Assembly (NCBI GenBank): GCA_963843305.1
Contig: CAWJJS010000001.1
Location: 1,540,804 to 1,580,803 of the forward strand
Direction: 5' to 3'
DNA: 40,000 nucleotides
Origin: an uncultured Solirubrobacterales bacterium
GTDB lineage: Bacteria; Actinomycetota; Thermoleophilia; Solirubrobacterales; Solirubrobacteraceae
Shown in pieces: positions 7,963 through 34,665 of the stretch; position 1 is the stretch's first letter, and each line of letters opens with the position of its first letter. Under the pieces are notes generated by a model. That model did not search any database. It had not been told where the DNA came from and saw only the letters and a program-made list of their open reading frames with translations. The position numbers and the translations under genes were made by a program.

Positions 7963-8372
7963 AACGCCCCGCCCTCTCCGACGGCGCGCCGTCGTCGTCG
8001 CCGTCGTCGTCGCCGCCGCGAGTCCCGCGTGAAACTCACGCGTCCGTCACGCAGCCAGAAATGACAGCGGGTGTACGCATCGGAGAAGTTGACGGACGGT
8101 GAGAGCGACGGGCCGCCGCTCCCTGCGCTCAACGTCCAGAACGGCCGGCGGCTCGCGGAGAGGTTGACCATAATTGTGTGCCCGGTCCCGCACGGACACT
8201 CAAAGCTGGCCCACTGCGGGTCCGCCGGGCTTCCCGTCACCACGACCGCTCGGCGGGGAAGCCGGGCGGGGAGTTCACTCTGCCGTGCGAAATATTTGAC
8301 GTCGTCCAGCCGCGGTGTGATCACACGCTGACGACGAAGCCAGTCGGTTGCCCGGTCCGCTATGGCGCCCAC
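7959..8372 (-). CDS. DUF6527-type zinc-knuckle protein with a poly-arginine tail
   Basis: FECPCGTGHTIMVNLS..PFWTLS..GPSLSPSVNF..RCHFWLRDGRVSF matches the CxC...CH core remembered for DUF6527 proteins, which accompany prokaryotic E1/E2/Ubl operons. The C-terminus carries 11 consecutive Arg. The start is uncertain: GTG 8372 is preferred (GGGGA RBS, 13-nt overlap with the E1 gene), with ATG 8435 or GTG 8324 as alternatives. Confidence 0.7.
   Translation of the reverse strand: MGAIADRATDWLRRQRVITPRLDDVKYFARQSELPARLPRRAVVVTGSPADPQWASFECPCGTGHTIMVNLSASRRPFWTLSAGSGGPSLSPSVNFSDAYTRCHFWLRDGRVSFTRDSRRRRRRRRRRRAVGEGGAL
7986..8018 (-). repeat. (CGN)11 trinucleotide tract encoding Arg11
   Basis: The minus strand reads CGG CGG CGA CGA CGA CGG CGA CGA CGA CGG CGC. 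Confidence 0.9.
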
Positions 8373-9742
8373 GTGATCCCCAGAGGCGGTTCCCGATCGC
8401 CGAGACCCCACTTCGTCGCGGGTGCGCAATAGCAACCGTCGCGGATCGCGCCCGCGGGCCTGCCGATCGCCCGGTCGCTGATGCGCAACAGCACCTTCCC
8501 CGACAGCCCCGCCTCAGCGAAACCGAACAGCCGCTGCAGCAGATCCGCCACCGCGTAGGAGGCCGTCATGGTCGTATAGGCGATTACTGCCGGGTCCGGC
8601 TCATCCAGGCCCTGCGCGTATCCCTCCGCCGCCAGACGCGTCCGCTCGCTCTCGGAGTAGCGCTCTTCCGCGGCGCGCTGCGGATCGATCTCACCACGAC
8701 ACAGCAAACACGGTTCGCCGGGGGTAGCGACCGTCACCCGACCGTAGATGCCCACGATCTTCTCGTGATCGGAGGAGATGACAACGCCCATGTCGATCAC
8801 GGGGATCAGATACCAGTACGCAAGCCGCGAGAGGACGCTGCGGCTACTGTGGCTATCGGTGCACCCAAACACCACATCGCATGTGCGCAGCAGTTCCATC
8901 GTCTCTCGCCGCGTGACGTTCGCGTGGTGGCCCTCGACACGTGTCCTCAGACCGATCGCCGTGAGGTGGTCGTGGAGCACCGCGACCTTCGCCCGTCCGA
9001 CGTCGGAGAGCGTCGAGCCATAGATTCGGGTCACGTTCGTGTCGGTGACGACGTCATGGTCGATCAGCACAAGCTGCCCGATCCCGAGTCTCGTCAGCTG
9101 CTCGGCGACCGCTGAGCCGGTTCCCCCGCAACCCACCACACCCACCCGGAGGCTGCTCAGCACCTGCTGGCCGGCCTTACCGAACGCCCGGATCTGCCGG
9201 TCATATGCCTCGAGCTCAATCCCACGGCTGCCTTCGTCTGCCCCAAATGCCCGGGCGACACGGATCTGGCGGCCGACGGTGCGCACTCGCTCTACGGCAA
9301 GGACCGGCTGATCATCCTCGAAGACACGACCGCTGAGCGTCGGTCGACCCTCAAGGACACCGAGTATCAGGCTGGCGTACCGGGCCGAGTTCGCACGCGT
9401 TTTGAACACCCGGGTCAGCGCCTCATCGACAACGTCGTCGCGAATCGACGGCGTCGGGGGGCTGTGCGGGTGCGTGTGGAAGAAGATCGGGACGAGCTTC
9501 CGCGACGCGGCGACCTTCAGGGCATGCATCCACCCATGGGAGGCGATCCGCAACTGATGCCCGTCTCGTTCCTCGTAGGCGCTGTCGGGCACCGACAGGA
9601 TCTCGTTGATCGTGAGTGTGAGCCGCTCGCGGTCGTCCGCGACCCCGGCGAGCAGGACGGCTGCCGTCTCGCGTGGGTCGGCGAGGGCCGCGGTCAGCTC
9701 GCTCCAGTGCTGTTCAGCGAACGTGACCGTAACGGTGCTCAT
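8360..9742 (-). CDS. JAB/MPN deubiquitinase-like domain fused to a ThiF/E1-like adenylyltransferase
   Basis: The N-terminal domain has a perfect JAMM motif, HTHPHSPPTPSIRD (HxHx7SxxD), with an upstream Glu (PRETAAVLLAG). The C-terminal Rossmann fold reads VGVVGCGGTGSAVAEQLTRLGIGQLVLIDHDVVTDTNVTRIYG, with CxxC (PCLLC) and CxC (GCYC) motifs. ATG 9742 overlaps the E2-like stop (ATGA). Confidence 0.85.
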   Translation of the reverse strand: MSTVTVTFAEQHWSELTAALADPRETAAVLLAGVADDRERLTLTINEILSVPDSAYEERDGHQLRIASHGWMHALKVAASRKLVPIFFHTHPHSPPTPSIRDDVVDEALTRVFKTRANSARYASLILGVLEGRPTLSGRVFEDDQPVLAVERVRTVGRQIRVARAFGADEGSRGIELEAYDRQIRAFGKAGQQVLSSLRVGVVGCGGTGSAVAEQLTRLGIGQLVLIDHDVVTDTNVTRIYGSTLSDVGRAKVAVLHDHLTAIGLRTRVEGHHANVTRRETMELLRTCDVVFGCTDSHSSRSVLSRLAYWYLIPVIDMGVVISSDHEKIVGIYGRVTVATPGEPCLLCRGEIDPQRAAEERYSESERTRLAAEGYAQGLDEPDPAVIAYTTMTASYAVADLLQRLFGFAEAGLSGKVLLRISDRAIGRPAGAIRDGCYCAPATKWGLGDREPPLGITWAP

Positions 9743-10125
9743 GCTGCTATGGGCACGCCGGCCTGAAGGTTGGTCCGAACGAACCGCAGGTACGACTGAA
9801 GGTTGTCGATTCCGGGCCGCCAGTCGTTCTCGTTCAGGTGGCGAGACCACCGCTGCCAGGTCCGCTCAACGTAGACCTCACGCTGCTCGGAGCCCGGCGG
9901 CATTGCACCAGCCTGATAGGCCACGGCCGGTGAGAGCCAGAACATATCCGGGCGCGCGTCAGGGAAACCGTTCGGCAGCCGGATCAAAAGGTCCGCATGG
10001 GTCACGTCGTACCCTGGCGGCAGCCCGTAGTCGCTGATCACGAGGTTTACGACCTCACCCTCCGCGTGGGTTCGAAAGGTCAGGCCGCGGGACTGCAGGA
10101 AATTCGTGTCGTCTTCGGCTAGCAC
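9739..10125 (-). CDS. Prokaryotic E2/UBC-like (UEV-like) protein lacking any cysteine
   Basis: 128 aa. ..LVISDYGLPPGYDVTHADLLIRLPNGFPDARPDMFWL.. resembles the prokaryotic E2-fold family found beside multiubiquitin and E1-JAB genes. Its GTG start overlaps the Ubl gene end by 7 nt. The sequence contains no Cys. Confidence 0.65.
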   Translation of the reverse strand: MLAEDDTNFLQSRGLTFRTHAEGEVVNLVISDYGLPPGYDVTHADLLIRLPNGFPDARPDMFWLSPAVAYQAGAMPPGSEQREVYVERTWQRWSRHLNENDWRPGIDNLQSYLRFVRTNLQAGVPIAA

Positions 10126-10376
10126 GCGCCCGGGCTGATGTTGCTGGGGGACGAGTAGAAGTGCATGTCCTCTTTGACGCGCACCGTTTCGACTGGGGTA
10201 ACGGCCTTGTCCTCAGTGTCGCCGTGCTCCTCAAGCCACAGGTCAAAGTTCTCACCGATCGGCGGCGTGGGAACGTTTCGCAGTTCGGCGCCTGTCATGT
10301 CGCGCTCATGGACGGTGTACGGCTGGCGGTCAATATGAATCCTGATCGTGGGCTCGTGCTCCGAAGCGTCTGCCAT
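10119..10376 (-). CDS. Ubiquitin-like beta-grasp protein (multiubiquitin-family type, single domain)
   Basis: RBS GAGGAG precedes ATG 10376. The 85-aa sequence is MADASEHEPTIRIHIDRQPYTVHERDMTGAELRNVPTPPIGENFDLWLEEHGDTEDKAVTPVETVRVKEDMHFYSSP... This matches the pattern remembered for multiubiquitin-domain proteins (I.I.v...y.v....tG.el......p....L.......d..v......v....g..F). It is the first gene of the operon. Confidence 0.65.
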   Translation of the reverse strand: MADASEHEPTIRIHIDRQPYTVHERDMTGAELRNVPTPPIGENFDLWLEEHGDTEDKAVTPVETVRVKEDMHFYSSPSNISPGAC

Positions 10377-10664
10377 CTCGTAGTCTCCTCTAAAGATTGC
10401 TAGTGCGGCGTGCGATTGCATTCTAGCAACCAGTTCCGTCGTGTCCCCGGCTCTGCTTCCGCCTCGTTCCCCAGCGTGGGCGGCTCGTGGGCGGGACGGC
10501 CAGAAAGCGACAGCTAGCTCGTCCAGCAATCTCGGCCAAATCGCCCCGCGATTCCCACCCCTGTACCCAAATATTCCCGGTCAGGGCGGCTCCCAGCCCC
10601 CGCCCACATCCACCAGCACTTGTATCGGGGACGGGTTGAATCTGCGACCGCCCGCCCGACAACA

Positions 10665-10709
10665 TCGTGTGCGGTCTATGCCTTTCGCCATGTGCGATTC
10701 GTGTGCGGT
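10665..10709. repeat. Arm-type repeats, island 1 right arm (TCGTGTGCGGT x2)
   Basis: Copies at 10665-10675 and 10699-10709, 34 bp apart, with a degenerate ATGTGCGAT between them. The 11-mer is the same as at 2028-2038. Confidence 0.55.
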
Positions 10710-10835
10710 CAGCACCAATAGCCAGTACAGCAGCCGACCCGCCAAACATCGGCATTATGCCGCTGAATTGGTTACCCAGAGCCAAATCCCGAAGCTAGAG
10801 AGGCCCCAAGCATCCCCCTGACTCCAACAGCAAAA

Positions 10836-10846
10836 CAATCGGGGCG
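10836..10846. repeat. Candidate att core copy B (CAATCGGGGCG)
   Basis: The 11-mer is identical to 24396-24406 at the tRNA-Pro 3' end. The following bases (AACGGTTCAAGTTGG) loosely resemble the tRNA T-arm region (CCCGGATTCGAACCGG). Confidence 0.5.
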
Positions 10847-10899
10847 AACGGTTCAAGTTGGCTGCAACAGCCAATCTTTCCGGGCGTTCCCTAGTCGGA

Positions 10900-10920
10900 T
10901 GCTCCCGAGTTGCTCCCGAG
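10900..10920. repeat. Arm-type repeats, island 2 left arm (TGCTCCCGAG x2)
   Basis: Copies at 10900-10909 and 10911-10920, immediately after the integrase stop codon (10922-10924). Confidence 0.55.
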
Positions 10921-10921
10921 A

Positions 10922-11965
10922 CTACCTGGACGCCACGGCTTCGAGGGGAGCGATATCCTCGCCCCAGGCCGCCAACAGGCGAGCGCGGGCTGCATCCTCG
11001 CGCGGATGACCGTAAAGCTCTTGCACCAGGCGACCGCCATCGGTGTGGCCCAACTGGACCGCGACATCCCATGGCGTCGATCCTCGTTCGAGCAGCATCG
11101 TCGCACCCGCGTGGCGAAGCTCGTAGAAGTCGAATCCGGGCCGGTCAGCAAGGAGCCTGAGCTTGGTCCAATACCTGTGATGGAGGCTAGCGGTCCACTG
11201 CTTGCCACCAGGAGTCACGAACAGCAAGCCAGAGCGGTGGTCAGGCACGTCCGAGAGCGCGTGCTGTGCGACGGGCGGGATTGTGACGGTGCGTGGCTTC
11301 CCATTCTTCGGAGGCGTCGTCTCGTGGCTGTGGCTGGAGTAGGCCCGCTCGATGGTACATAGCTGACCGCTGATGTCATCGCGGCGCAACGCGAACAGCT
11401 CGCCGGGACGTAGCCCGACGTAGCCCGAGAACAGGATCATGGCCCGGTACTCCGGCCCGTACTCGCCAAGCTCCATCCGACGATCCAAAGCCAAGTTCGC
11501 AAGTTCCATCAACTCGCTCTCGGTCAGCGCCACGATGTCCTTGCGGCCACGGCCACGGGCGATGCGGAGTTCGGCGAAAGGGTTGTAGGGGACCAATCCA
11601 TCCCGCAGGGCATCGCCGAACATGGCCCGTACGGTCGTCAGGTCGTGTCGGTGCTTGAGCGCCCACGCTCTCGCGGTGGGTCGATCAACGTCGCCGAGCT
11701 TGACGCCCTTGAAGTCCTTGGCAAACGTCTTCGTGTGCTCTTCGTTGGTCATCGTCGTGGACTTGCGTGGGCGCGGGAAATCCCGCATCCACCGCTCAGC
11801 AAACTGATCGCATGTCTCGGCTCCGGTTGGCTTGCCCTTCAGCCGATGATCTGCCTCCGCCGCTAGAGCCTCTCGCTTCGTCGCGTAGGTCCCCAGATGC
11901 ACCTTGCGCTTGAGCGCTTTGTCGTAACCGCTTGCCGTCCAGCGCTTACCCCGCTTCCGTGCCAT
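10922..11965 (-). CDS. Tyrosine recombinase / integrase (intact)
   Basis: 347 aa. ..GLRPGELFALRRDDI.., ..FYELRHAGATMLLERG.. (HxxR) and ..VQLGHTDGGRLVQELYGH (catalytic Tyr) are all in one frame. The N-terminus is an Arm/SAM-like region. Confidence 0.9.
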   Translation of the reverse strand: MARKRGKRWTASGYDKALKRKVHLGTYATKREALAAEADHRLKGKPTGAETCDQFAERWMRDFPRPRKSTTMTNEEHTKTFAKDFKGVKLGDVDRPTARAWALKHRHDLTTVRAMFGDALRDGLVPYNPFAELRIARGRGRKDIVALTESELMELANLALDRRMELGEYGPEYRAMILFSGYVGLRPGELFALRRDDISGQLCTIERAYSSHSHETTPPKNGKPRTVTIPPVAQHALSDVPDHRSGLLFVTPGGKQWTASLHHRYWTKLRLLADRPGFDFYELRHAGATMLLERGSTPWDVAVQLGHTDGGRLVQELYGHPREDAARARLLAAWGEDIAPLEAVASR

Positions 11966-12179
11966 GCACGTACCTTTCGTCTAGCCACGCCTCAACCTCG
12001 GTGGGATTGAAGCGTAGCCGTGAGCCCCACTTGTGTCGGGGCATTCCCTCGCTGAGCCGATAGCGCCACCATCGCTCCGAGTAACCGAAACACTCCTGTA
12101 GCTCAGACAACGGAACCAGGCGTGCTGCCCGCCGACGTTCAAGCGGGAATCGCACGACTCCGGCAGTTTGAACGCTCAC
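11946..12179 (-). CDS. Excisionase-type HTH protein (Xis) of island 2
   Basis: GTG 12179 follows RBS GGGGAGG. ..LVPLSELQECFGYSERWWRYRLSEGMPRHKWGSRLRFNPTEVEAWL.. is an excisionase HTH. The gene overlaps the int start by 20 nt. Confidence 0.7.
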   Translation of the reverse strand: MSVQTAGVVRFPLERRRAARLVPLSELQECFGYSERWWRYRLSEGMPRHKWGSRLRFNPTEVEAWLDERYVHGTEAG

Positions 12180-12508
12180 GCCGCCTCCCCGAAGCTCTGC
12201 GCCAGCTTCAACCAACCCGCGATCTTTTCGTCTAGCAGGCGACGAGCAGGGCCGTTCAGGATACGCTCTACTTTGCTCTGAACGCGCGAAGGCGCGAAGC
12301 AGCCTGCCAAGGCTTTCGTACCGTTGCCGTCTACTACTTGCTGTCGCGCCAATGTGTGCTCCGTCCACCGATTCGTTTCTCGATGTCCGCCAGCACGTAG
12401 GAAGGCCGCTGGGAAGTCCGAGCCCCATTGGCGACTTCCTGACAACTCGTGCCGAGTGTAGCAGAGGCGTTTCCGTTTATTCAGCGTGGCTTTCGCTTCG
12501 GTCGCCAA
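12176..12508 (-). CDS. Hypothetical protein (110 aa, TTG start)
   Basis: Its TGA overlaps the xis GTG (GTGA coupling). It faces the divergent AT-rich promoter region at 12509-12668. No recognisable family, and the start is uncertain. Confidence 0.4.
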   Translation of the reverse strand: MATEAKATLNKRKRLCYTRHELSGSRQWGSDFPAAFLRAGGHRETNRWTEHTLARQQVVDGNGTKALAGCFAPSRVQSKVERILNGPARRLLDEKIAGWLKLAQSFGEAA

Positions 12509-12620
12509 GCCTCGTGCAGATATTGCACCTTTGCTCTATCGGGTCGCTCTCCACTCGGGTGTTCCTGGCGTTTTACCTATTCATTTCGCTTTTACTATGA
12601 AAACGTTGACCGCCCGTCGC

Positions 12621-12626
12621 TATAAT
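12621..12626 (+). promoter_or_regulatory. Perfect TATAAT -10 hexamer upstream of the RHH gene, followed by GTGAT/ATCAC inverted repeat
   Basis: TATAAT at 12621-12626 lies in an AT-rich divergent intergenic region. GTGAT (12629-12633), ATCAC (12639-12643) and a further ATCAC (12651-12655) could be an operator. No well-spaced -35 hexamer is present. Confidence 0.35.
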
Positions 12627-12668
12627 CTGTGATGGACAATCACGTCCAGAATCACCACAAGGAACACC

Positions 12669-12854
12669 ATGTCTACCGAGTCAACACTAACGAGAGCCAT
12701 CAGCAGCCGGGTGAAGCCCGACCAGATCGCTCAGCTTCAGCACTATGCAGCAATCGACCGCGTGACGCCCAGTAAGTTCATTGCTCGGCTCGTTTACGCA
12801 GAGCTTCAGCGTCGTAACAGCGCATCCGGTTCTGCCGGTGCCGACCATGAGTAG
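12669..12854 (+). CDS. Ribbon-helix-helix (CopG/Arc-like) small DNA-binding protein
   Basis: 61 aa. ..ISSRVKPDQIAQLQHYAAIDRVTPSKFIARLVYAEL.. shows the RHH beta-strand plus two helices pattern. It is the first gene of the rightward operon. Confidence 0.6.
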   Translation: MSTESTLTRAISSRVKPDQIAQLQHYAAIDRVTPSKFIARLVYAELQRRNSASGSAGADHE

Positions 12855-13683
12855 GGGCGACGCTGTTTCTTCAGCCAAGCGGTCCACGTCTACACCGAAA
12901 ACCGGTGCCTTTGACCGACTGAATTGGGCTCGGGATCAGCAAGTCAACAATACGACGCGCAAGGCGATTCTGTTTGCCTTGGTGAGCTACTCCAAACCAA
13001 ACGGACACGTATGGGCGCGCCAAGTCACGCTCGCAAAGGTTGCCGAATGTAGCCGACAAACCGCAAACGAACATTTGCAGCGGCTACGCGACGAAGGCAA
13101 GATCGACATGCGCCGTCAATATCGGACGGACGGCTCCCGTCGTGACAACGAGTACCTGCTCTTGTTCCGCTCCGACGTAACATGGCCGGATGGCACGATA
13201 CCCGAGAATATGTCGGCCATCCCGACACATTCCGGTGAGAACTGGTCGGGGACACCGACACATTTTGGGAAAAACATATCGGCCAAACCGACAACCCGTG
13301 TCGGGGAAACCGACAACCTAAGTCGGCCATCCCGACACGTCAGGTCGGAACGTGTCGGGCAAACCGACAGTATAGACAGGAAAGAGAGCAAGAAACGCAG
13401 ACACACGAAATCTGACCAAGGCAACTCTGCTACAGACTCCGTGTGCATGCTTGGACAGGATGACGATGGTTCCGAGGATCGAGAGCCATCCAAAGACACT
13501 CCCCAGAAACGTATGGAAAAGCTGCGGGCAGCAGCAGCGGAACGTGCAGCAGGGCCAAAGCCCATAGCCGCTACAGATGAGCCCGAGCCGGTGGCTACCG
13601 AATCGAAGCTGGACGAACTACGACGGCGAGCAAGGGGACGCGCGACAAGCGACAGCGCTTTTGACATCGACGCCTCAGTCTAG
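12847..13683 (+). CDS. wHTH DNA-binding protein, possible replication initiator of the element
   Basis: ATG 12847 overlaps the RHH gene end. N-terminal wHTH: ..RKAILFALVSYSKPNGHVWARQVTLAKVAECSRQTANEHLQRLRDEGKI... The central coding region holds the phased iteron-like array. The C-terminus is acidic and low-complexity. Confidence 0.6.
   Translation: MSRGDAVSSAKRSTSTPKTGAFDRLNWARDQQVNNTTRKAILFALVSYSKPNGHVWARQVTLAKVAECSRQTANEHLQRLRDEGKIDMRRQYRTDGSRRDNEYLLLFRSDVTWPDGTIPENMSAIPTHSGENWSGTPTHFGKNISAKPTTRVGETDNLSRPSRHVRSERVGQTDSIDRKESKKRRHTKSDQGNSATDSVCMLGQDDDGSEDREPSKDTPQKRMEKLRAAAAERAAGPKPIAATDEPEPVATESKLDELRRRARGRATSDSAFDIDASV
13212..13370. repeat. Six phased 17-bp iteron-like units GTCGGSSANMCCGACAM inside the Rep-like gene
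   Basis: Units start at 13212, 13245, 13278, 13300, 13322 and 13354, giving spacings of 33, 33, 22, 22 and 32 bp. Units 1 and 5 are identical (GTCGGCCATCCCGACAC). A 10-bp perfect inverted repeat, CCCGACACGT (13331-13340) / ACGTGTCGGG (13350-13359), is also present. Confidence 0.85.
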
Positions 13684-24289: not shown

Positions 24290-24398
24290 CAGGGCGATTC
24301 AGACCGGGTACGGCCTGCACTCAATTGCACCCAGATTTAGCATATTTTGCAGGCTATTTTGCGCACTCCTGCACGTCGCTGCATCTTGCGTGTTGCAA

Positions 24399-24472
24399 TC
24401 GGGGCGCCCGGATTCGAACCGGGGACCTCGCCGACCCGAACGGCGCGCGCTACCAGGCTGCGCCACGCCCCG
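24399..24472 (-). tRNA. tRNA-Pro (anticodon CGG)
   Basis: The minus strand reads CGGGGCG TG GCGC AGCCTGGTA GCGC G CGCCG TTCGGGT CGGCG AGGTC CCCGG TTCGAAT CCGGG CGCCCCG A. This is a canonical cloverleaf with anticodon loop UUCGGGU. CCA is not encoded. The 3' end faces the islands. Confidence 0.95.
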
Positions 24473-24563
24473 ACGCAGGACGCAGTATCCCACACACCGC
24501 ACCCAGGCTCCGGCCAGACTGTCTCTACCCCACCGACAGAGCCCGAGCGGCTACGCTCGCCCC

Positions 24564-30859: not shown

Positions 30860-32200
30860 ATGGATCCCGCACACATCCTTCACTTGTCCACACCACGCGC
30901 TTTGCGGCGATCTACCTCAGCCGGACCACGCGCACGCTTGGCAGGGCGACGCCCGATCCCGCGAAGACGACGCATGGTCTTGGCGACGTTCGCAGCGGCG
31001 CTCGCGCCCGCGCTCGCCATGACGTCCACGGCCATTGCCCAGAATTCGCTCGAAGCGCCGCTTGCCCGCGAGATGAGGCTCGCCGGGGCCCAGTCGGGCG
31101 CCTATGTCTATGACCTGACGAAGGCCACGACCCTATTCAGCGAGCGGGCCGAAGTTCCCCATCCGCCCGCCTCCGTGGAGAAGCTGTATACCGCCACGAC
31201 CGCCCTGGAGCTGATGGGCCCCGAAGCCACGCTTGCCACCAGCGTGCTCGGCACGGGGCATCCAGGTCCAGACGGGCGCTGGGAAGGCAACCTCTACCTG
31301 AAGGGCGGCGGCGACCCCACATTCGGCAGCGCCTCTTTCGTCGCGGCCCGCTACGGCGGCCAGGGGGCGACCGTGACGAAGCTGGCCGCGCTCGTAAAGG
31401 CGGCTGGTATCAAGGAAGTCACCGGCAACGTGGACGGGGACGATTCCTGGTTCGACTCCCTGCGCGGGGACCCCTACAGCGACTACGCGCCCGACCCCGA
31501 ACTGGAAGGCGAGCTGAGCGGCCTTTCATTCAATCGCGGCGAGACGGGCTCGGAGGGCGGCTTGCACGCACCCGCGGCCTATGCGGCACTCCAGCTGCGA
31601 GGGGCGCTTCGAGCCGAGGGAATCAAAGTCCATGGAGGCACCGCTGCGGTGACCCCCGTCGGCGCGACGATGGTGGCAACCGAGTCCTCGCCGAACTTGG
31701 CGACCCTGCTCGGACTGACATTGCCACCTTCTGACAACTACTTCGCGGAGACTTTGATCAAGGACATCGGCGCGCGCTTCGGTGGTGCCGGCACCACCGC
31801 CGCCGGTGCTGCCGTGGTGCGCTCGACCATCGCCAAGGACTTCGGCCTTCATCCCTACCTGATTGACGGCTCGGGGCTGTCGCACTCCGATCACACCACT
31901 CCCAAGCAAGTGGTGGAGCTGCTCACCGCACTCGCTCCCAGCCCCCTGGGCACAACCCTGCGCAACGACCTGGCCGTCGCCGGTCAAACCGGGACGCTCT
32001 CAGAACGGATGCGACACACGCCCGCCTCAGGGCGCTGTCGCGCCAAGACGGGGACCTTGAACGGCGTGTCCAACCTGGCCGGCTACTGCGAAAGCGCGGG
32101 CGGAGACATCCTTGCCTTCGCGTTCTTCAACGACGGCATCGAAACGTATAAGGCGCACACGATCCAGGACAACATGGCGATCACGCTAGCTCGCTATTGA
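30860..32200 (+). CDS. dacB: D-alanyl-D-alanine carboxypeptidase/endopeptidase, PBP4 family (peptidase S13)
   Basis: SxxK (PASVEKLYT), SxN (PPSDNYFAE) and KTG (AKTGTLNGV) motifs, with a signal-like RRRRMVLATFAAALAPALAMTSTAIA. The start is ambiguous (30794, 30860 or 30974). Confidence 0.85.
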   Translation: MDPAHILHLSTPRALRRSTSAGPRARLAGRRPIPRRRRMVLATFAAALAPALAMTSTAIAQNSLEAPLAREMRLAGAQSGAYVYDLTKATTLFSERAEVPHPPASVEKLYTATTALELMGPEATLATSVLGTGHPGPDGRWEGNLYLKGGGDPTFGSASFVAARYGGQGATVTKLAALVKAAGIKEVTGNVDGDDSWFDSLRGDPYSDYAPDPELEGELSGLSFNRGETGSEGGLHAPAAYAALQLRGALRAEGIKVHGGTAAVTPVGATMVATESSPNLATLLGLTLPPSDNYFAETLIKDIGARFGGAGTTAAGAAVVRSTIAKDFGLHPYLIDGSGLSHSDHTTPKQVVELLTALAPSPLGTTLRNDLAVAGQTGTLSERMRHTPASGRCRAKTGTLNGVSNLAGYCESAGGDILAFAFFNDGIETYKAHTIQDNMAITLARY

Positions 32201-32218
32201 GCGGACTTATATAAAACG

Positions 32219-32245
32219 ATTCGACCCGCCAAAAGCGGGCCGAAT
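32219..32245 (+). terminator. Stem-loop after dacB
   Basis: ATTCGACCCGC caaaa GCGGGCCGAAT forms an 11-bp stem with one mismatch, 19 nt after the stop. No U-tract follows. Confidence 0.4.
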
Positions 32246-32395
32246 GCGGCACAGTCACATGACACATGTTGTAGTGATAGTACCACAGCTAGCGCGGCTT
32301 AACAGCCATTCGGACGGATGATGGGGACGCGACGGTGACGAATCCGTCTCGGCGCCTGACTATTGCTGCCTGTCCCACATCGTCCATCTAATCGG

Positions 32396-32484
32396 CGGAA
32401 GGTGTGGGAGTCGAACCCATCCGGAGGGTCACTCCGAAAGTTCATGTGTCACATGACTGTGCCGACCGCGGCACTGCACCTTCC
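32396..32484 (-). tRNA. tRNA-Sec-shaped / allo-tRNA-like gene with 8-bp acceptor, 4-bp T stem and GAC in the anticodon position
   Basis: The minus strand reads GGAAGGTG CA GTGCCG CGGT CGGCAC AGTCAT GTGACAC ATGAAC TTTCGGAG TGACC CTCCGGA TGGG TTCGACT CCCA CACCTTCC G. It has a perfect 8-bp acceptor, a 6-bp D stem with a 4-nt loop, a long variable arm (7 bp), T loop TTCGACT and discriminator G. No UCA anticodon can be placed in a 7-nt loop. Confidence 0.6.
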
Positions 32485-32492
32485 TGTTGCTT

Positions 32493-32498
32493 ATTGTA
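32493..32498 (-). promoter_or_regulatory. TACAAT -10-like hexamer upstream of the tRNA-like gene
   Basis: The minus strand reads TACAAT aagcaacag GGAAGG..., so the hexamer ends 9 nt before the first tRNA base. There is no convincing -35. Confidence 0.3.
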
Positions 32499-32523
32499 CG
32501 CAGGGGGGCGGACGGAATTGTGG

Positions 32524-34665
32524 CTACCCACCCAGCAGCTCGAGCAAAGCTCCCTCGTCCAGCACCGCCACCTCCAGCCGCTCGGCCTTCTCCAACTTGG
32601 ACCCCGGCGACTCTCCCGCCACCAGGTAATCGGTCTTCTTCGACACGCCACTGGTCACGCGCCCGCCGGCGGCCTGGATGCGCTCGGTGGCCTGCTCGCG
32701 CGAGAGCGTCGGCAGCGTGCCCGTGAGCACGAACGTCTTGTTCACCAAAGGACCACTGGTCGGCGCGGGCCCCTCCTCGGCGAAGCGCAAACCCTGCTTG
32801 CGCAGGTCTTCGACCAGCGCGCCCATGCGCTCGTCGTGCAGTTGTGAATGGATCAAAAGGCTCATCTTCTCACCGATCCCGGGGGTCTCGGCAATCTCGG
32901 CGGCGCTCGCCGCGAGCAGGGCGTCGATGTTGCGGAAGCGCAACGCCAGATTGCGCCCGGTGACCTCGCCGACCTCCTCGATACCAAGCGCGAACAGGAC
33001 GCGTCCGAACGGCCGCTGCTTGGAAGTCTCGATTGCGTCAAGCAAGTGGTTGACCGACAGCTCACCAAAACCCTCCAGCTCGAGCAACTGCTCACTGTGT
33101 TCATGCAAACGGTAGTAGTCGGCAGCCGTGTGAACCAAAGCCTGTTGCTGCAACAAGGCCACCTGCTTCTCGCCGAGCCCGTCGATGTCCATCGCCCCGC
33201 GCGAGACGAAGTGCTTGAGCAGCTGCCACGCGCGCTCTGGGCAGTCGCGGTTGGGGCAGCTTGTGAAGACCGACCCCTCTGGCTTGACTGTAGGCGTATC
33301 GCAAAACGGACAGCGCTCAGGCGGCCGCGTCGGCTCCGGACGATCTTTGTGCTCGGCGACGTGTGGAGCGGGCGAGACGACTTGCGGGATCACGTCGCCG
33401 GCGCGCAGCACGATCACGTCCTCGCCGGCACGGATGTCCTTGCGGACGATGTCCTCCTCGTTATGCAGCGTCGCCAGCTTGATCACGACGCCGCCGGCCG
33501 CCACCGGCTCGAGCATCGCGTAGGGGCGCAGGTCGCCGAACTTGCCGACGTTCCACATCACTTTGTGTAGGCGCGTCACGGCTGTGGTCGGCGGGAACTT
33601 CCAGGCCACCGCCCAGCGCGGATCGCGACCTACCGAGCCGAGCCGGCGCTGTAGCTCGAGGTCTGAGACCTTGATCACGACCCCGTCGATCTCAAAGTCC
33701 AGGTCGCCGCGACGCTCCTGCCAGCGCAGGCATTGCGCGATCACCTGCTCCTCGCTGTCGAGCAGCTTGATGTCGCGGTTGACGCGGAAACCATGCTCGC
33801 GCAACCATTCGAGCGCCTGCCAATGCGTCTCGAATTTGAGCTCCGGCGCCACCCCTATTTGGTAGGCCCACATCGACAGGGGACGTTCGGCCATCAGAGA
33901 AGGGTCGAGCTGGCGCACAGCTCCGGCCGCCGAGTTGCGGGGATTCATGAAAGTGGACAGGCCGGCTTCGGCGCGGCGCTCGTTGACGGCGGCGAAGTCC
34001 TTCAGCGACATGTAGATCTCGCCGCGCACCTCCAACAAGGGCGGCGCATCGTCGATGCGTAGTGGGACCGAGCCGATCGTGCGCAGATTGTGCGTCACGT
34101 CCTCGCCGACCTCACCGTTGCCGCGTGTAGCTCCGCGCACGAGCACGCCGTCGCGGTAGAGCAGGCTGATCGCCAGCCCGTCGACCTTCGGCTCCACCAC
34201 GTACTCAAAGCTCGAGCGCTCGATCCCTTCGCGGGCTAGGTGCGTCCTCATGCGCGTCACCCAAGCCCTCAGCTCCGCTTCGTTGCGAACGTTGTCCAGC
34301 GAGAGCATCGGCTCCAGGTGCTTGACCTTCTCGAGCTTGCCGACCGGCTCGCCGCCGACGCGCTGGGTCGGCGAGTCGGCGGTTCGCAGCTCTGGATATT
34401 CGGCCTCCAGCGCGCGTAGCTCGTCGAGCAGCGCGTCGTATACGTCATCGGTGATCTCGGGGTCGTCGAGTACGTAGTAGCGGTGAGCGTGATGCTCGAG
34501 TTGAGCGCGCAGCTCAGCTGCACGAGCGAGCTGCTGCTTGGAAGGGCGCTCCCCGGAGGCAGCTTGCGTGGTGGGCTCGGCTCCGGCCGGCCCAGAGTCC
34601 CGATTCCCGGGAGCCTGAGCGTCCGACTCCTGCTTTCGGGACGACCGCGTCGACGGTCTGCTCAC
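32524..34665 (-). CDS. ligA: NAD-dependent DNA ligase LigA
   Basis: Adenylation motif EPKVDGLAISLLY (KxDG), Zn finger CPFCDTPTV...CPNRDCP, HhH repeats and a C-terminal BRCT (FVLTGTLPTLSREQA). GTG 34665 overlaps the surE stop (GTGA). Confidence 0.95.
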   Translation of the reverse strand: MSRPSTRSSRKQESDAQAPGNRDSGPAGAEPTTQAASGERPSKQQLARAAELRAQLEHHAHRYYVLDDPEITDDVYDALLDELRALEAEYPELRTADSPTQRVGGEPVGKLEKVKHLEPMLSLDNVRNEAELRAWVTRMRTHLAREGIERSSFEYVVEPKVDGLAISLLYRDGVLVRGATRGNGEVGEDVTHNLRTIGSVPLRIDDAPPLLEVRGEIYMSLKDFAAVNERRAEAGLSTFMNPRNSAAGAVRQLDPSLMAERPLSMWAYQIGVAPELKFETHWQALEWLREHGFRVNRDIKLLDSEEQVIAQCLRWQERRGDLDFEIDGVVIKVSDLELQRRLGSVGRDPRWAVAWKFPPTTAVTRLHKVMWNVGKFGDLRPYAMLEPVAAGGVVIKLATLHNEEDIVRKDIRAGEDVIVLRAGDVIPQVVSPAPHVAEHKDRPEPTRPPERCPFCDTPTVKPEGSVFTSCPNRDCPERAWQLLKHFVSRGAMDIDGLGEKQVALLQQQALVHTAADYYRLHEHSEQLLELEGFGELSVNHLLDAIETSKQRPFGRVLFALGIEEVGEVTGRNLALRFRNIDALLAASAAEIAETPGIGEKMSLLIHSQLHDERMGALVEDLRKQGLRFAEEGPAPTSGPLVNKTFVLTGTLPTLSREQATERIQAAGGRVTSGVSKKTDYLVAGESPGSKLEKAERLEVAVLDEGALLELLGG

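Follow-up and report, generated by a model that had tools for sequence, protein, structure and literature searches.

A conserved (8/4) allo-tRNA gene and its co-evolving antisense arm between ligA and dacB in Solirubrobacteraceae

Does a tRNA gene that standard finders overlook provide its host with a tRNA that reads valine codons, and, if so, what would keep such a tRNA in check? This question is raised by an 89-nt element on the minus strand of a 40,000-nt stretch of DNA, which was analysed as a whole and is hereafter called the window, from an uncultured Solirubrobacterales soil bacterium of the family Solirubrobacteraceae (GenBank assembly GCA_963843305.1, contig CAWJJS010000001.1, positions 1,540,804 to 1,580,803 of the forward strand). 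The initial annotation of the window had described the element as a gene shaped like that of the selenocysteine tRNA (tRNA-Sec) with the anticodon GAC and had named a possible allo-tRNA, a regulatory tRNA-like RNA and a decayed tRNA-Sec gene (selC) as its possible identities. As described below, the locus is a maintained (8/4) allo-tRNA by the published criteria (PMC5389517), and a 22-nt segment downstream of it, designated the anti-arm, is a co-evolved complement of tRNA nucleotides 21–42 that is accompanied by promoter-like and terminator signals.

The tRNA gene and its conservation

The sequence of the element, read on the minus strand from 32484 to 32396, is GGAAGGUG-CA-GUGCCG-CGGU-CGGCAC-AGUCAU-GUGACAC-AUG(A)ACU-UUCGGAG-UGACC-CUCCGGA-UGGG-UUCGACU-CCCA-CACCUUCC-G. 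It comprises an 8-bp acceptor stem (GGAAGGTG/CACCTTCC) followed by the linker CA, a D arm with a 6-bp stem and a tetraloop (GTGCCG-CGGT-CGGCAC), an anticodon arm with the loop GUGACAC, a 19-nt variable arm with a 7-bp stem including one U·G pair and a 5-nt loop (TTCGGAG-TGACC-CTCCGGA), a T arm with a 4-bp stem (TGGG-TTCGACT-CCCA) and the discriminator G. All structural elements listed in the initial annotation were thus found in place, except for the length of the anticodon arm, which is 20 nt (a 6-bp stem with one bulged nucleotide in its 3′ strand) and not 19 nt as claimed. The minimum free energy (MFE) fold of the 89-mer was the cloverleaf, at −41.7 kcal/mol with a z score of −3.7, and none of 200 shuffled sequences was equally stable.

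The geometry sets the element apart from the ordinary classes of tRNA. A reading of the acceptor/T branch as 7/5 fails, as the fifth T pair would be A65·C81, and, where a canonical elongator tRNA-Val has a 7/5 branch, a short variable loop and A73, the element has an 8/4 branch, a 19-nt variable arm and G73. Similarly, GAC and a 12-bp 8/4 branch are found in place of the UCA or recoded anticodon and the 13-bp 8/5 branch of tRNA-Sec. ARAGORN made no call at the element in the window or at any of the nine loci that carry it (11 loci run), and an Rfam scan at gathering thresholds gave nothing at the element. The Rfam tRNA-Sec model aligned with it over its full length and gave 41.2 bits (E = 1e-6 in a search of 800 nt), which is less than the gathering score of 47, and all alleles scored between 36.0 and 42.9 bits. 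Our own covariance model, for which the seven distinct alleles were used, found a single copy in the window, at 111.9 bits. No selA, selB or selD was detected among the Pfam-scanned open reading frames (ORFs) of the window.

Allo-tRNAs were originally found as sub-threshold matches to the covariance model for tRNA-Sec (PMC5389517), and the element resembles the (8/4) members of that group in its 12-bp 8/4 branch, its tRNA-Sec-like D arm with a long stem and a tetraloop, its long variable arm, which together with G73 forms the Ser-type set, its anticodon, which is neither Ser nor Sec, and its sub-threshold score. Its anticodon stem is also lengthened, exceeding 5 bp with six pairs around a 7-nt loop, the bulge being a deviation. 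It differs from the published allo-tRNAs in this conserved single-nucleotide bulge, in its host, which belongs to the Actinomycetota and not to the Clostridia, Proteobacteria and Acidobacteria listed as hosts, with Actinomycetota not listed (PMC5389517), and in its place in the chromosome, within a fixed cassette that also holds a Y-shaped hairpin, a second promoter-like site and an antisense arm that co-evolves with the tRNA. Among the published allo-tRNAs, an anticodon for Val was seen only once; the parts of such a cassette go unmentioned in that report, and the words ‘antisense’ and ‘complementary’ are absent from its text (PMC5389517). With bacterial tRNA-Sec, the actinobacterial 8/4 form of which has a bulge 51a, the element shares the 8-bp acceptor stem, the 6-bp D stem with a 4-nt loop, the long variable arm, G73 and the T loop UUCGACU, and bacterial selC is probably its evolutionary source. 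Unlike selC, however, it has GAC instead of UCA and scores under the Rfam gathering score. The branch of 8 + 4 = 12 bp is of a length accepted by EF-Tu and lacks the 51a bulge, and it therefore fits EF-Tu rather than SelB.

The distribution of the element was determined by several searches, in which labels of the form L### denote the contigs or loci compared. By blastn with the element and the whole 323-nt gap as queries, no homologue was found in 80 ligA loci of species-representative genomes, the best LigA match among which was 85% identical; the LigA comparison with these genomes placed the window in Solirubrobacterales (Thermoleophilia, Actinomycetota). In these relatives the convergent ligA and dacB genes are mostly −7 to +70 nt apart, other loci having unrelated insertions, and the 323-nt cassette is therefore lineage-specific. 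A metagenome pattern scan with the D-arm core and the T loop gave, among the matches listed, one true homologue on a syntenic contig (L162), the remaining matches listed being chance juxtapositions with ordinary tRNAs, and contigs encoding the closest LigA clusters gave seven further carriers (L264, L268, L269, L270, L271, L272 and L273). Thus, eight homologues were found in related Solirubrobacteraceae, with seven distinct tRNA alleles in all and always in the ligA–dacB gap. The covariance model found no copies beyond the nine known in 192 loci, a BLAST search with the cassette gave no match in phage and plasmid collections, and a scan of viral contigs with a 17-mer of the T arm and acceptor gave 61 matches, all of which were unrelated 3′ ends of transfer-messenger RNAs or tRNAs. 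Among the loci compared, the cassette was seen solely in one Solirubrobacteraceae clade. In L162, ligA is 86.5% identical to that of the window, the cassette 95.5% and the tRNA 89/89, while in L264 ligA is 90.8% identical and the cassette 74%. The cassette alleles therefore do not follow the ligA tree, which indicates recombination among strains and is compatible with, but is not proof of, selfish or accessory behaviour.

To evaluate selection on the cloverleaf, we used an alignment of the nine sequences (A2; 387 pair cells), in which partners slid by 1–3 columns served as controls. Standard pairs occupied 98.7% of the cells, and both partners had changed in six pairs (D stem, two; anticodon stem, three; variable arm, one), as compared with 37–49% pairing and nearly no both-side changes (one pair in one slide) in the controls. 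The acceptor and T helices were paired in 97–100% of cells and the D stem in 100%, and the D loop is YGGK with GG retained in all alleles. The T arm, the 3′ acceptor strand and G73 are invariant, the variable arm is kept as a 7-bp stem with a 5-nt loop in the alleles, and the bulge in the anticodon stem is conserved. The loop is N-U-G-A-C-A-Y in 7/7 alleles, in which U33, GAC and A37 are invariant and adjacent stem pairs change on both sides. The possibility of an allo-tRNA is thus strengthened, as the geometry, the D arm, the variable arm, G73 and an anticodon of neither Sec nor Ser type have been kept by compensatory evolution across seven alleles. The 15-nt palindrome TCATGTGACACATGA, which had been noted in the anticodon arm and suggested to close the loop, is present in the window with 0 mismatches, but such closure was rejected as a conserved feature; because the palindrome is absent from the loops of other alleles (UUGACAC, CUGACAC and GUGACAU), it is the open 7-nt loop that is conserved. 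The upstream hexamer TACAAT lies 8 nt from the tRNA and is invariant in sequence and distance in 9/9 loci, and judging from this match it is probably the tRNA's own promoter (P1). On the 3′ side, the acceptor is succeeded by GCC at every locus, and L264 and L269 encode CCA.

The anti-arm and its co-evolution with the tRNA

A repeat search of the window revealed a 22-nt inverted repeat, one copy of which is tRNA nucleotides 21–42 and the other of which, 174 nt apart from it, is the anti-arm (coordinates in Table 1). The anti-arm CAUGUGUCAUGUGACUGUGCCG pairs with tRNA nucleotides 42–21 at all 22 positions, by 20 Watson–Crick and 2 G·U pairs. Across the nine loci, this long-range helix was 95.9% paired and 7 pairs (19 cells) had changed on both sides, whereas in the slid controls 15–50% of cells paired and no more than 2 pairs had both-side changes. 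Between the window and L268, for example, U29, A31 and U41 of the tRNA are replaced by A, G and C, and at the matching positions of the arm A, U and A give way to U, C and G. The non-Watson–Crick cells among cognate pairs were 22 G·U, 2 A·C (one event) and 3 of the transversion type. With regard to transition-type mismatches between the arm and the tRNA, at least 11 site/type combinations are G·U in the sense RNA against 1 that is A·C. Since similarity at the DNA level alone predicts equal numbers, this points to selection on the tRNA-sense RNA and not on the DNA.

The cognate duplexes are 21–26 bp long, with −37 to −54 kcal/mol, as compared with about −13 kcal/mol for the D and anticodon hairpins that they replace, and for nearly every allele the cognate duplex is the most stable one or tied. 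When the full transcript from the tRNA +1 to the terminator was folded without constraint, the MFE structure contained the long-range helix in 9/9 alleles, with 14–22 of its 22 pairs, and was better than the enforced cloverleaf by 1.7–20 kcal/mol. Nevertheless, covariation with the cloverleaf partners is seen for nucleotide 44 and for the D stem's 5′ strand, both of which are outside the anti-arm target, and therefore the cloverleaf must also form. As this covariation is unexplained by the long-range helix, two mutually exclusive structures are both maintained.

The anti-arm also has promoter-like and terminator signals of its own. Exactly one TGnTAnnnT motif, of the extended −10 type (P2), is present per cassette in 9/9 loci, always 6–8 nt before the cognate arm, in the versions TGGTACTAT, TGTTAACAT, TGTTACTGT, TGGTAGTAT and TGTTATCGT among the alleles. 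The arm is largely unpaired in its predicted fold and is directly adjoined by a strong terminator, the hairpin of which is 97% paired across the nine loci.

Two relatives have the arm in unusual arrangements. In L265 (5157–5266; LigA 90% identical), an arm-plus-terminator module stands alone (GCTACAGCATGTGTCATCGGCTGCGGCG, then a hairpin), with no tRNA or Y-shaped hairpin and with a damaged −10-like motif, TATCGC; this orphan arm is probably the remnant of a deletion. In L264 (2658–3031), the Y-shaped hairpin contains a tandem duplication of 17 nt, and there are two tandem anti-arms, of which the upstream one pairs with its own tRNA at 26/26 positions and retains TGTTATCGT, whereas the downstream one is like the arms of other alleles, is non-cognate with poor pairing and has a crippled −10 motif, TATCGC. 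Among other origins considered for the repeat, an integrase attachment site was rejected, the repeat being inverted, 174 bp apart and with no island, and so was a guide for RNA modification of the box C/D type, the complementarity being 22 nt and such machinery, to our knowledge, not occurring in bacteria.

A restrained tRNA and the alternative explanations

Taken together, we favour, with moderate confidence, the interpretation that the locus encodes a tRNA that reads Val codons, is probably charged with Ser and is kept under restraint by an antisense RNA of its own or by a fold-back lock. Seryl-tRNA synthetase (SerRS) uses the long variable arm, G73 and the pairs G1–C72, G2–C71 and A3–U70, and ignores the anticodon. 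The tRNA, once matured, would be serylated through these features, and, because SerRS ignores the anticodon, it is predicted to bring serine to GUC and GUU valine codons. As GUC (GTC in the DNA) is used here at 27 per 1000 codons, unrestrained serine insertion is predicted to be harmful. The anti-arm would be made as the 3′ part of a read-through precursor, which corresponds to the fold-back lock, and/or as a separate small RNA (sRNA) of about 65 nt from P2; having both its own −10-like motif and a terminator, it could arise in both ways. The 5′ end of the sRNA would be the seed, so that the anti-arm might nucleate at the anticodon loop and invade the strands to form the 21–26-bp duplex in place of the D and anticodon arms. 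Such a duplex would mask the anticodon and break the L shape, with the acceptor/T minihelix and the variable arm spared, and its length would suit cleavage by RNase III. Decoding by the tRNA would then be possible only once the anti-arm is removed or under-produced.

In the hok/sok fold-back, in type I antitoxins and in type VIII pairs, a potentially harmful RNA is silenced through extended pairing with a 3′ segment of the transcript itself and/or with a small, adjacent antisense RNA provided with a promoter and a terminator. The locus is like such RNA–RNA modules in the extended complementarity to an adjacent segment, in the cognate alleles and in a duplex of a size for RNase III, but it differs in that the restrained molecule is a tRNA and not an mRNA or a tRNA-sequestering sRNA. 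Unlike in type I systems, moreover, the antisense segment is encoded downstream on the same strand and does not overlap on the opposite strand, and toxicity and addiction are here matters of deduction (for the listing of toxin–antitoxin types I–VIII, see PMC11869752). In E. coli, allo-tRNAs bearing Leu anticodons inserted Ser with lethal effect, and allo-tRNA genes were found near toxin–antitoxin loci (PMC5389517); by analogy, toxicity of the freed tRNA is plausible. It is tentatively suggested, as an extension that we regard as rather doubtful, that the cassette is an all-RNA toxin–antidote module, in which a serine-charged allo-tRNA(GAC) that rewrites Val GUC/GUU codons throughout the proteome would be the toxin, neutralised by the cognate sRNA or fold-back arm. 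Allele-specific pairs would then diversify and be exchanged by recombination, and mistranslation would be released on loss of the labile antidote, as when stress or phage shuts off transcription. Another comparison is with tRNAProX of Streptomyces and Kitasatospora, which is chromosomal, toxic when expressed and proposed to be a stress tool (PMC10404621). It is likewise actinobacterial, with a body that dictates one amino acid and an anticodon that reads another, as predicted here; however, tRNAProX has a canonical 7/5 branch, Pro identity and a dedicated prolyl-tRNA synthetase isoform, in contrast to the 8/4 branch, predicted Ser identity and RNA partner of the present tRNA.

Several points weigh against the interpretation of a restrained Ser-charged tRNA. 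Expression, processing, charging and toxicity are predicted from the sequence, and a general promoter scan found no promoter in the region, P1 and P2 being consensus matches. The first two acceptor pairs contain A·C mismatches in two alleles (A1·C72 in L269, 5185–5274, and A2·C71 in L272, 5182–5270). These stem from G-to-A changes, with the remaining cassette intact, and may reflect attenuated or inactivated aminoacylation in those lineages; they weaken the case for aminoacylation being selected everywhere. The bulged anticodon stem, and G32 in the allele of the window, are unusual for a decoding tRNA, and the arms of L271–L273 carry 1–2 mismatches with their own tRNA. Valyl-tRNA synthetase (ValRS) might charge the tRNA via A35 and C36, which would make it harmless. 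The cassette is dispensable, because it is absent from L262, the closest relative by LigA (96% identical), and the role of the conserved Y-shaped hairpin is not explained by the model. Furthermore, the sample consists of nine related loci (seven tRNA alleles) from one clade, so the counts given above are not independent events.

An alternative that we consider unlikely is that the whole RNA of about 270 nt, in its long-range-paired state, functions as a structured noncoding RNA (ncRNA) that never decodes, with the 5′ acceptor/T/variable-arm module serving as a handle resembling a tRNA, through which the RNA would be processed by RNase P, receive CCA, be stabilised or be bound by a protein. Every allele has the long-range helix as its thermodynamic ground state, conservation with covariation is seen in the spacer hairpin, and the bulge, G32 and the acceptor mismatches in two alleles would be tolerable for a non-decoder. 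In addition, Mukai et al. put forward roles as regulatory ncRNAs and described allo-tRNA(UAU) species that are inactive (PMC5389517). It is difficult, however, to reconcile an RNA that never decodes with the cloverleaf covariation of the D-stem 5′ strand and nucleotide 44, with a −10-like element belonging to the arm itself, or with the invariance of UGACA in the loop amid covarying surroundings, since pairing with the arm alone would free the loop to change.

Alternatively, the gene might encode a benign accessory tRNA, charged with Val or weakly active, the complementarity of which serves only precursor processing, 3′-end formation or quality control and neither regulates the tRNA nor acts as an antidote. 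G73 and the long variable arm speak against Val identity, although the anticodon does carry A35 and C36, which are identity elements for ValRS, and the cassette is dispensable, lies in an insertion hot spot and has an arm that abuts a terminator. We know of no ordinary tRNA gene that needs a 22-nt co-evolving complement of its anticodon domain; the duplex would destroy the shape of the substrate and not aid its processing, and the cognate specificity of the arms would be needless for a processing signal. Overall, this explanation appears quite improbable.

It is very improbable that the 22-nt repeat acts as DNA, either as binding sites for a protein or recombinase or as an incomplete, inverted second copy of the tRNA gene whose similarity is upheld by gene conversion. 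The repeat is indeed inverted in the DNA, and, relative to their flanking genes, the alleles of the cassette are shuffled; however, the bias of at least 11 G·U over 1 A·C combinations, where equal numbers are predicted, led us to reject homogenisation at the DNA level, 22-nt arms 174 nt apart are short for RecA-driven conversion, and there is no recombinase within or beside the cassette. Finally, a decaying selC pseudogene is hardly credible, for although the best Rfam match is tRNA-Sec (sub-threshold) and the acceptor GGAAG.../...CUUCC-G, the D loop CGGU and the T loop UUCGACU resemble those of E. coli selC, the option is refuted by compensatory substitutions in three stems, by the invariant anticodon, T arm, promoter hexamer and 3′ GCC and by a tRNA that is 100% identical between genomes 13% divergent.

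The ligA–dacB gap and the meaning of the cassette

The features of the cassette and the genes that flank it are summarised in Table 1; further neighbours in the Pfam scan of the window are surE, truA, rplQ and rpoA. The Y-shaped hairpin in the spacer has an RNAalifold energy of −39.4 kcal/mol with 28 pairs, 4 of which have changed on both sides, and has no Rfam match. There is no conserved ORF in the cassette: a 32-codon frame from 32387 was rejected, as it is broken by frameshifts in L162 and L271 and the substitutions are compensatory changes of the RNA type.

Table 1. Positions in the window of the cassette, its parts and the flanking genes.
Feature	Position	Strand	Remarks
RNA-only cassette	32201–32523	−	about 320 nt; fills the gap between the stop codons of ligA and dacB
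dacB (Peptidase_S13)	stop 32198–32200	+	flanks the cassette (Pfam scan of window ORFs)
ligA	stop 32524–32526	−	flanks the cassette (Pfam scan of window ORFs)
P1, −10-like hexamer TACAAT	32493–32498	−	8 nt separate it from G1 of the tRNA; consensus match
(8/4) allo-tRNA, anticodon GAC, discriminator G73	32396–32484	−	89 nt; CC next at 32394–32395
Anticodon loop GUGACAC	32446–32452	−	anticodon GAC at 32448–32450
Target of the anti-arm (tRNA nt 21–42)	32443–32464	−	D-stem 3′ strand, anticodon-stem 5′ strand, loop and half of the 3′ strand
Y-shaped (three-way junction) hairpin in the spacer	32313–32388	−	RNAalifold consensus
P2, extended −10-like TGGTACTAT (TGnTAnnnT)	32277–32285	−	8 nt upstream of the anti-arm; consensus match
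Anti-arm CAUGUGUCAUGUGACUGUGCCG	32247–32268	−	22 nt; about 130 nt downstream of the tRNA, same strand
Intrinsic terminator	32211–32245	−	12-bp hairpin 32219–32245, then CGUUUUAU

The tRNA is lacking in five close relatives (L262, L263, L265, L266 and L267). Three cassette-less loci (L262, 5146–5272; L266, 5131–5214; L267, 3832–3916) have in common an 85–127-nt filler (AAGCGGCTCACGATTTTGGGATT...GTTCCCGTGATCT...), and therefore two alternative alleles occupy the ligA–dacB gap. Elsewhere, the gap after ligA holds three AT-rich repeats of about 95 nt each (L013, 6022–6327), four tandem GGCGAGCGGGGCCYGA units (L005, 5998–6118), a strong hairpin followed by a small ORF resembling, by eye, an XRE-type helix-turn-helix (HTH) protein (L014, 6016–6559, and L015, 6019–6456) or, in other loci of L001–L080, small secreted-looking ORFs. 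Because these insertions are unrelated, the gap is considered to be an insertion hot spot in Solirubrobacterales.

Two further observations were made away from the cassette. The window contains, at 8360–13683 and 24398–24473, a JAB-ThiF fusion protein, a tyrosine integrase and an HTH_36 protein, 10–16 kb from a tRNA-Pro(CGG) gene, and this region, unrelated to the cassette, may be an integrated element or a defence island. In soil metagenome loci (L147, 1306–1610; L158, 304–604; L163, 831–1132; and about 20 more), a 76-nt tRNA-shaped sequence, CGGGCGGCGAAAGCCGTGGTCGGTAAGAAAATCCGCAGGGCTCAAAAGGCCTGTGAGGGTTCGACTCCCTCCGCCCGCACCA, lies downstream of a match to the group I intron (RF00028, 50–52 bits), at a distance of about 20 nt; it gave no ARAGORN call and scored 29 bits with the Rfam tRNA-Sec model.

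As far as the searched literature shows, a cassette of an allo-tRNA with a cognate anti-arm has been undescribed. Allo-tRNAs work in and are toxic to E. coli, and how native hosts tolerate or use them had stayed speculative; the present locus suggests an answer, namely a built-in RNA complementary to the half of the tRNA that decodes. Even when read conservatively, the locus is a conserved tRNA gene missed by standard tRNA finders and Rfam thresholds. If the interpretation of a tRNA restrained by its anti-arm is true, this would be the first natural tRNA under the control of a dedicated antisense RNA, would add an RNA-only layer of control to programmed mistranslation and would provide an orthogonal on/off switch for suppressor tRNAs that is usable in synthetic biology, and it would extend allo-tRNAs to the Actinomycetota.

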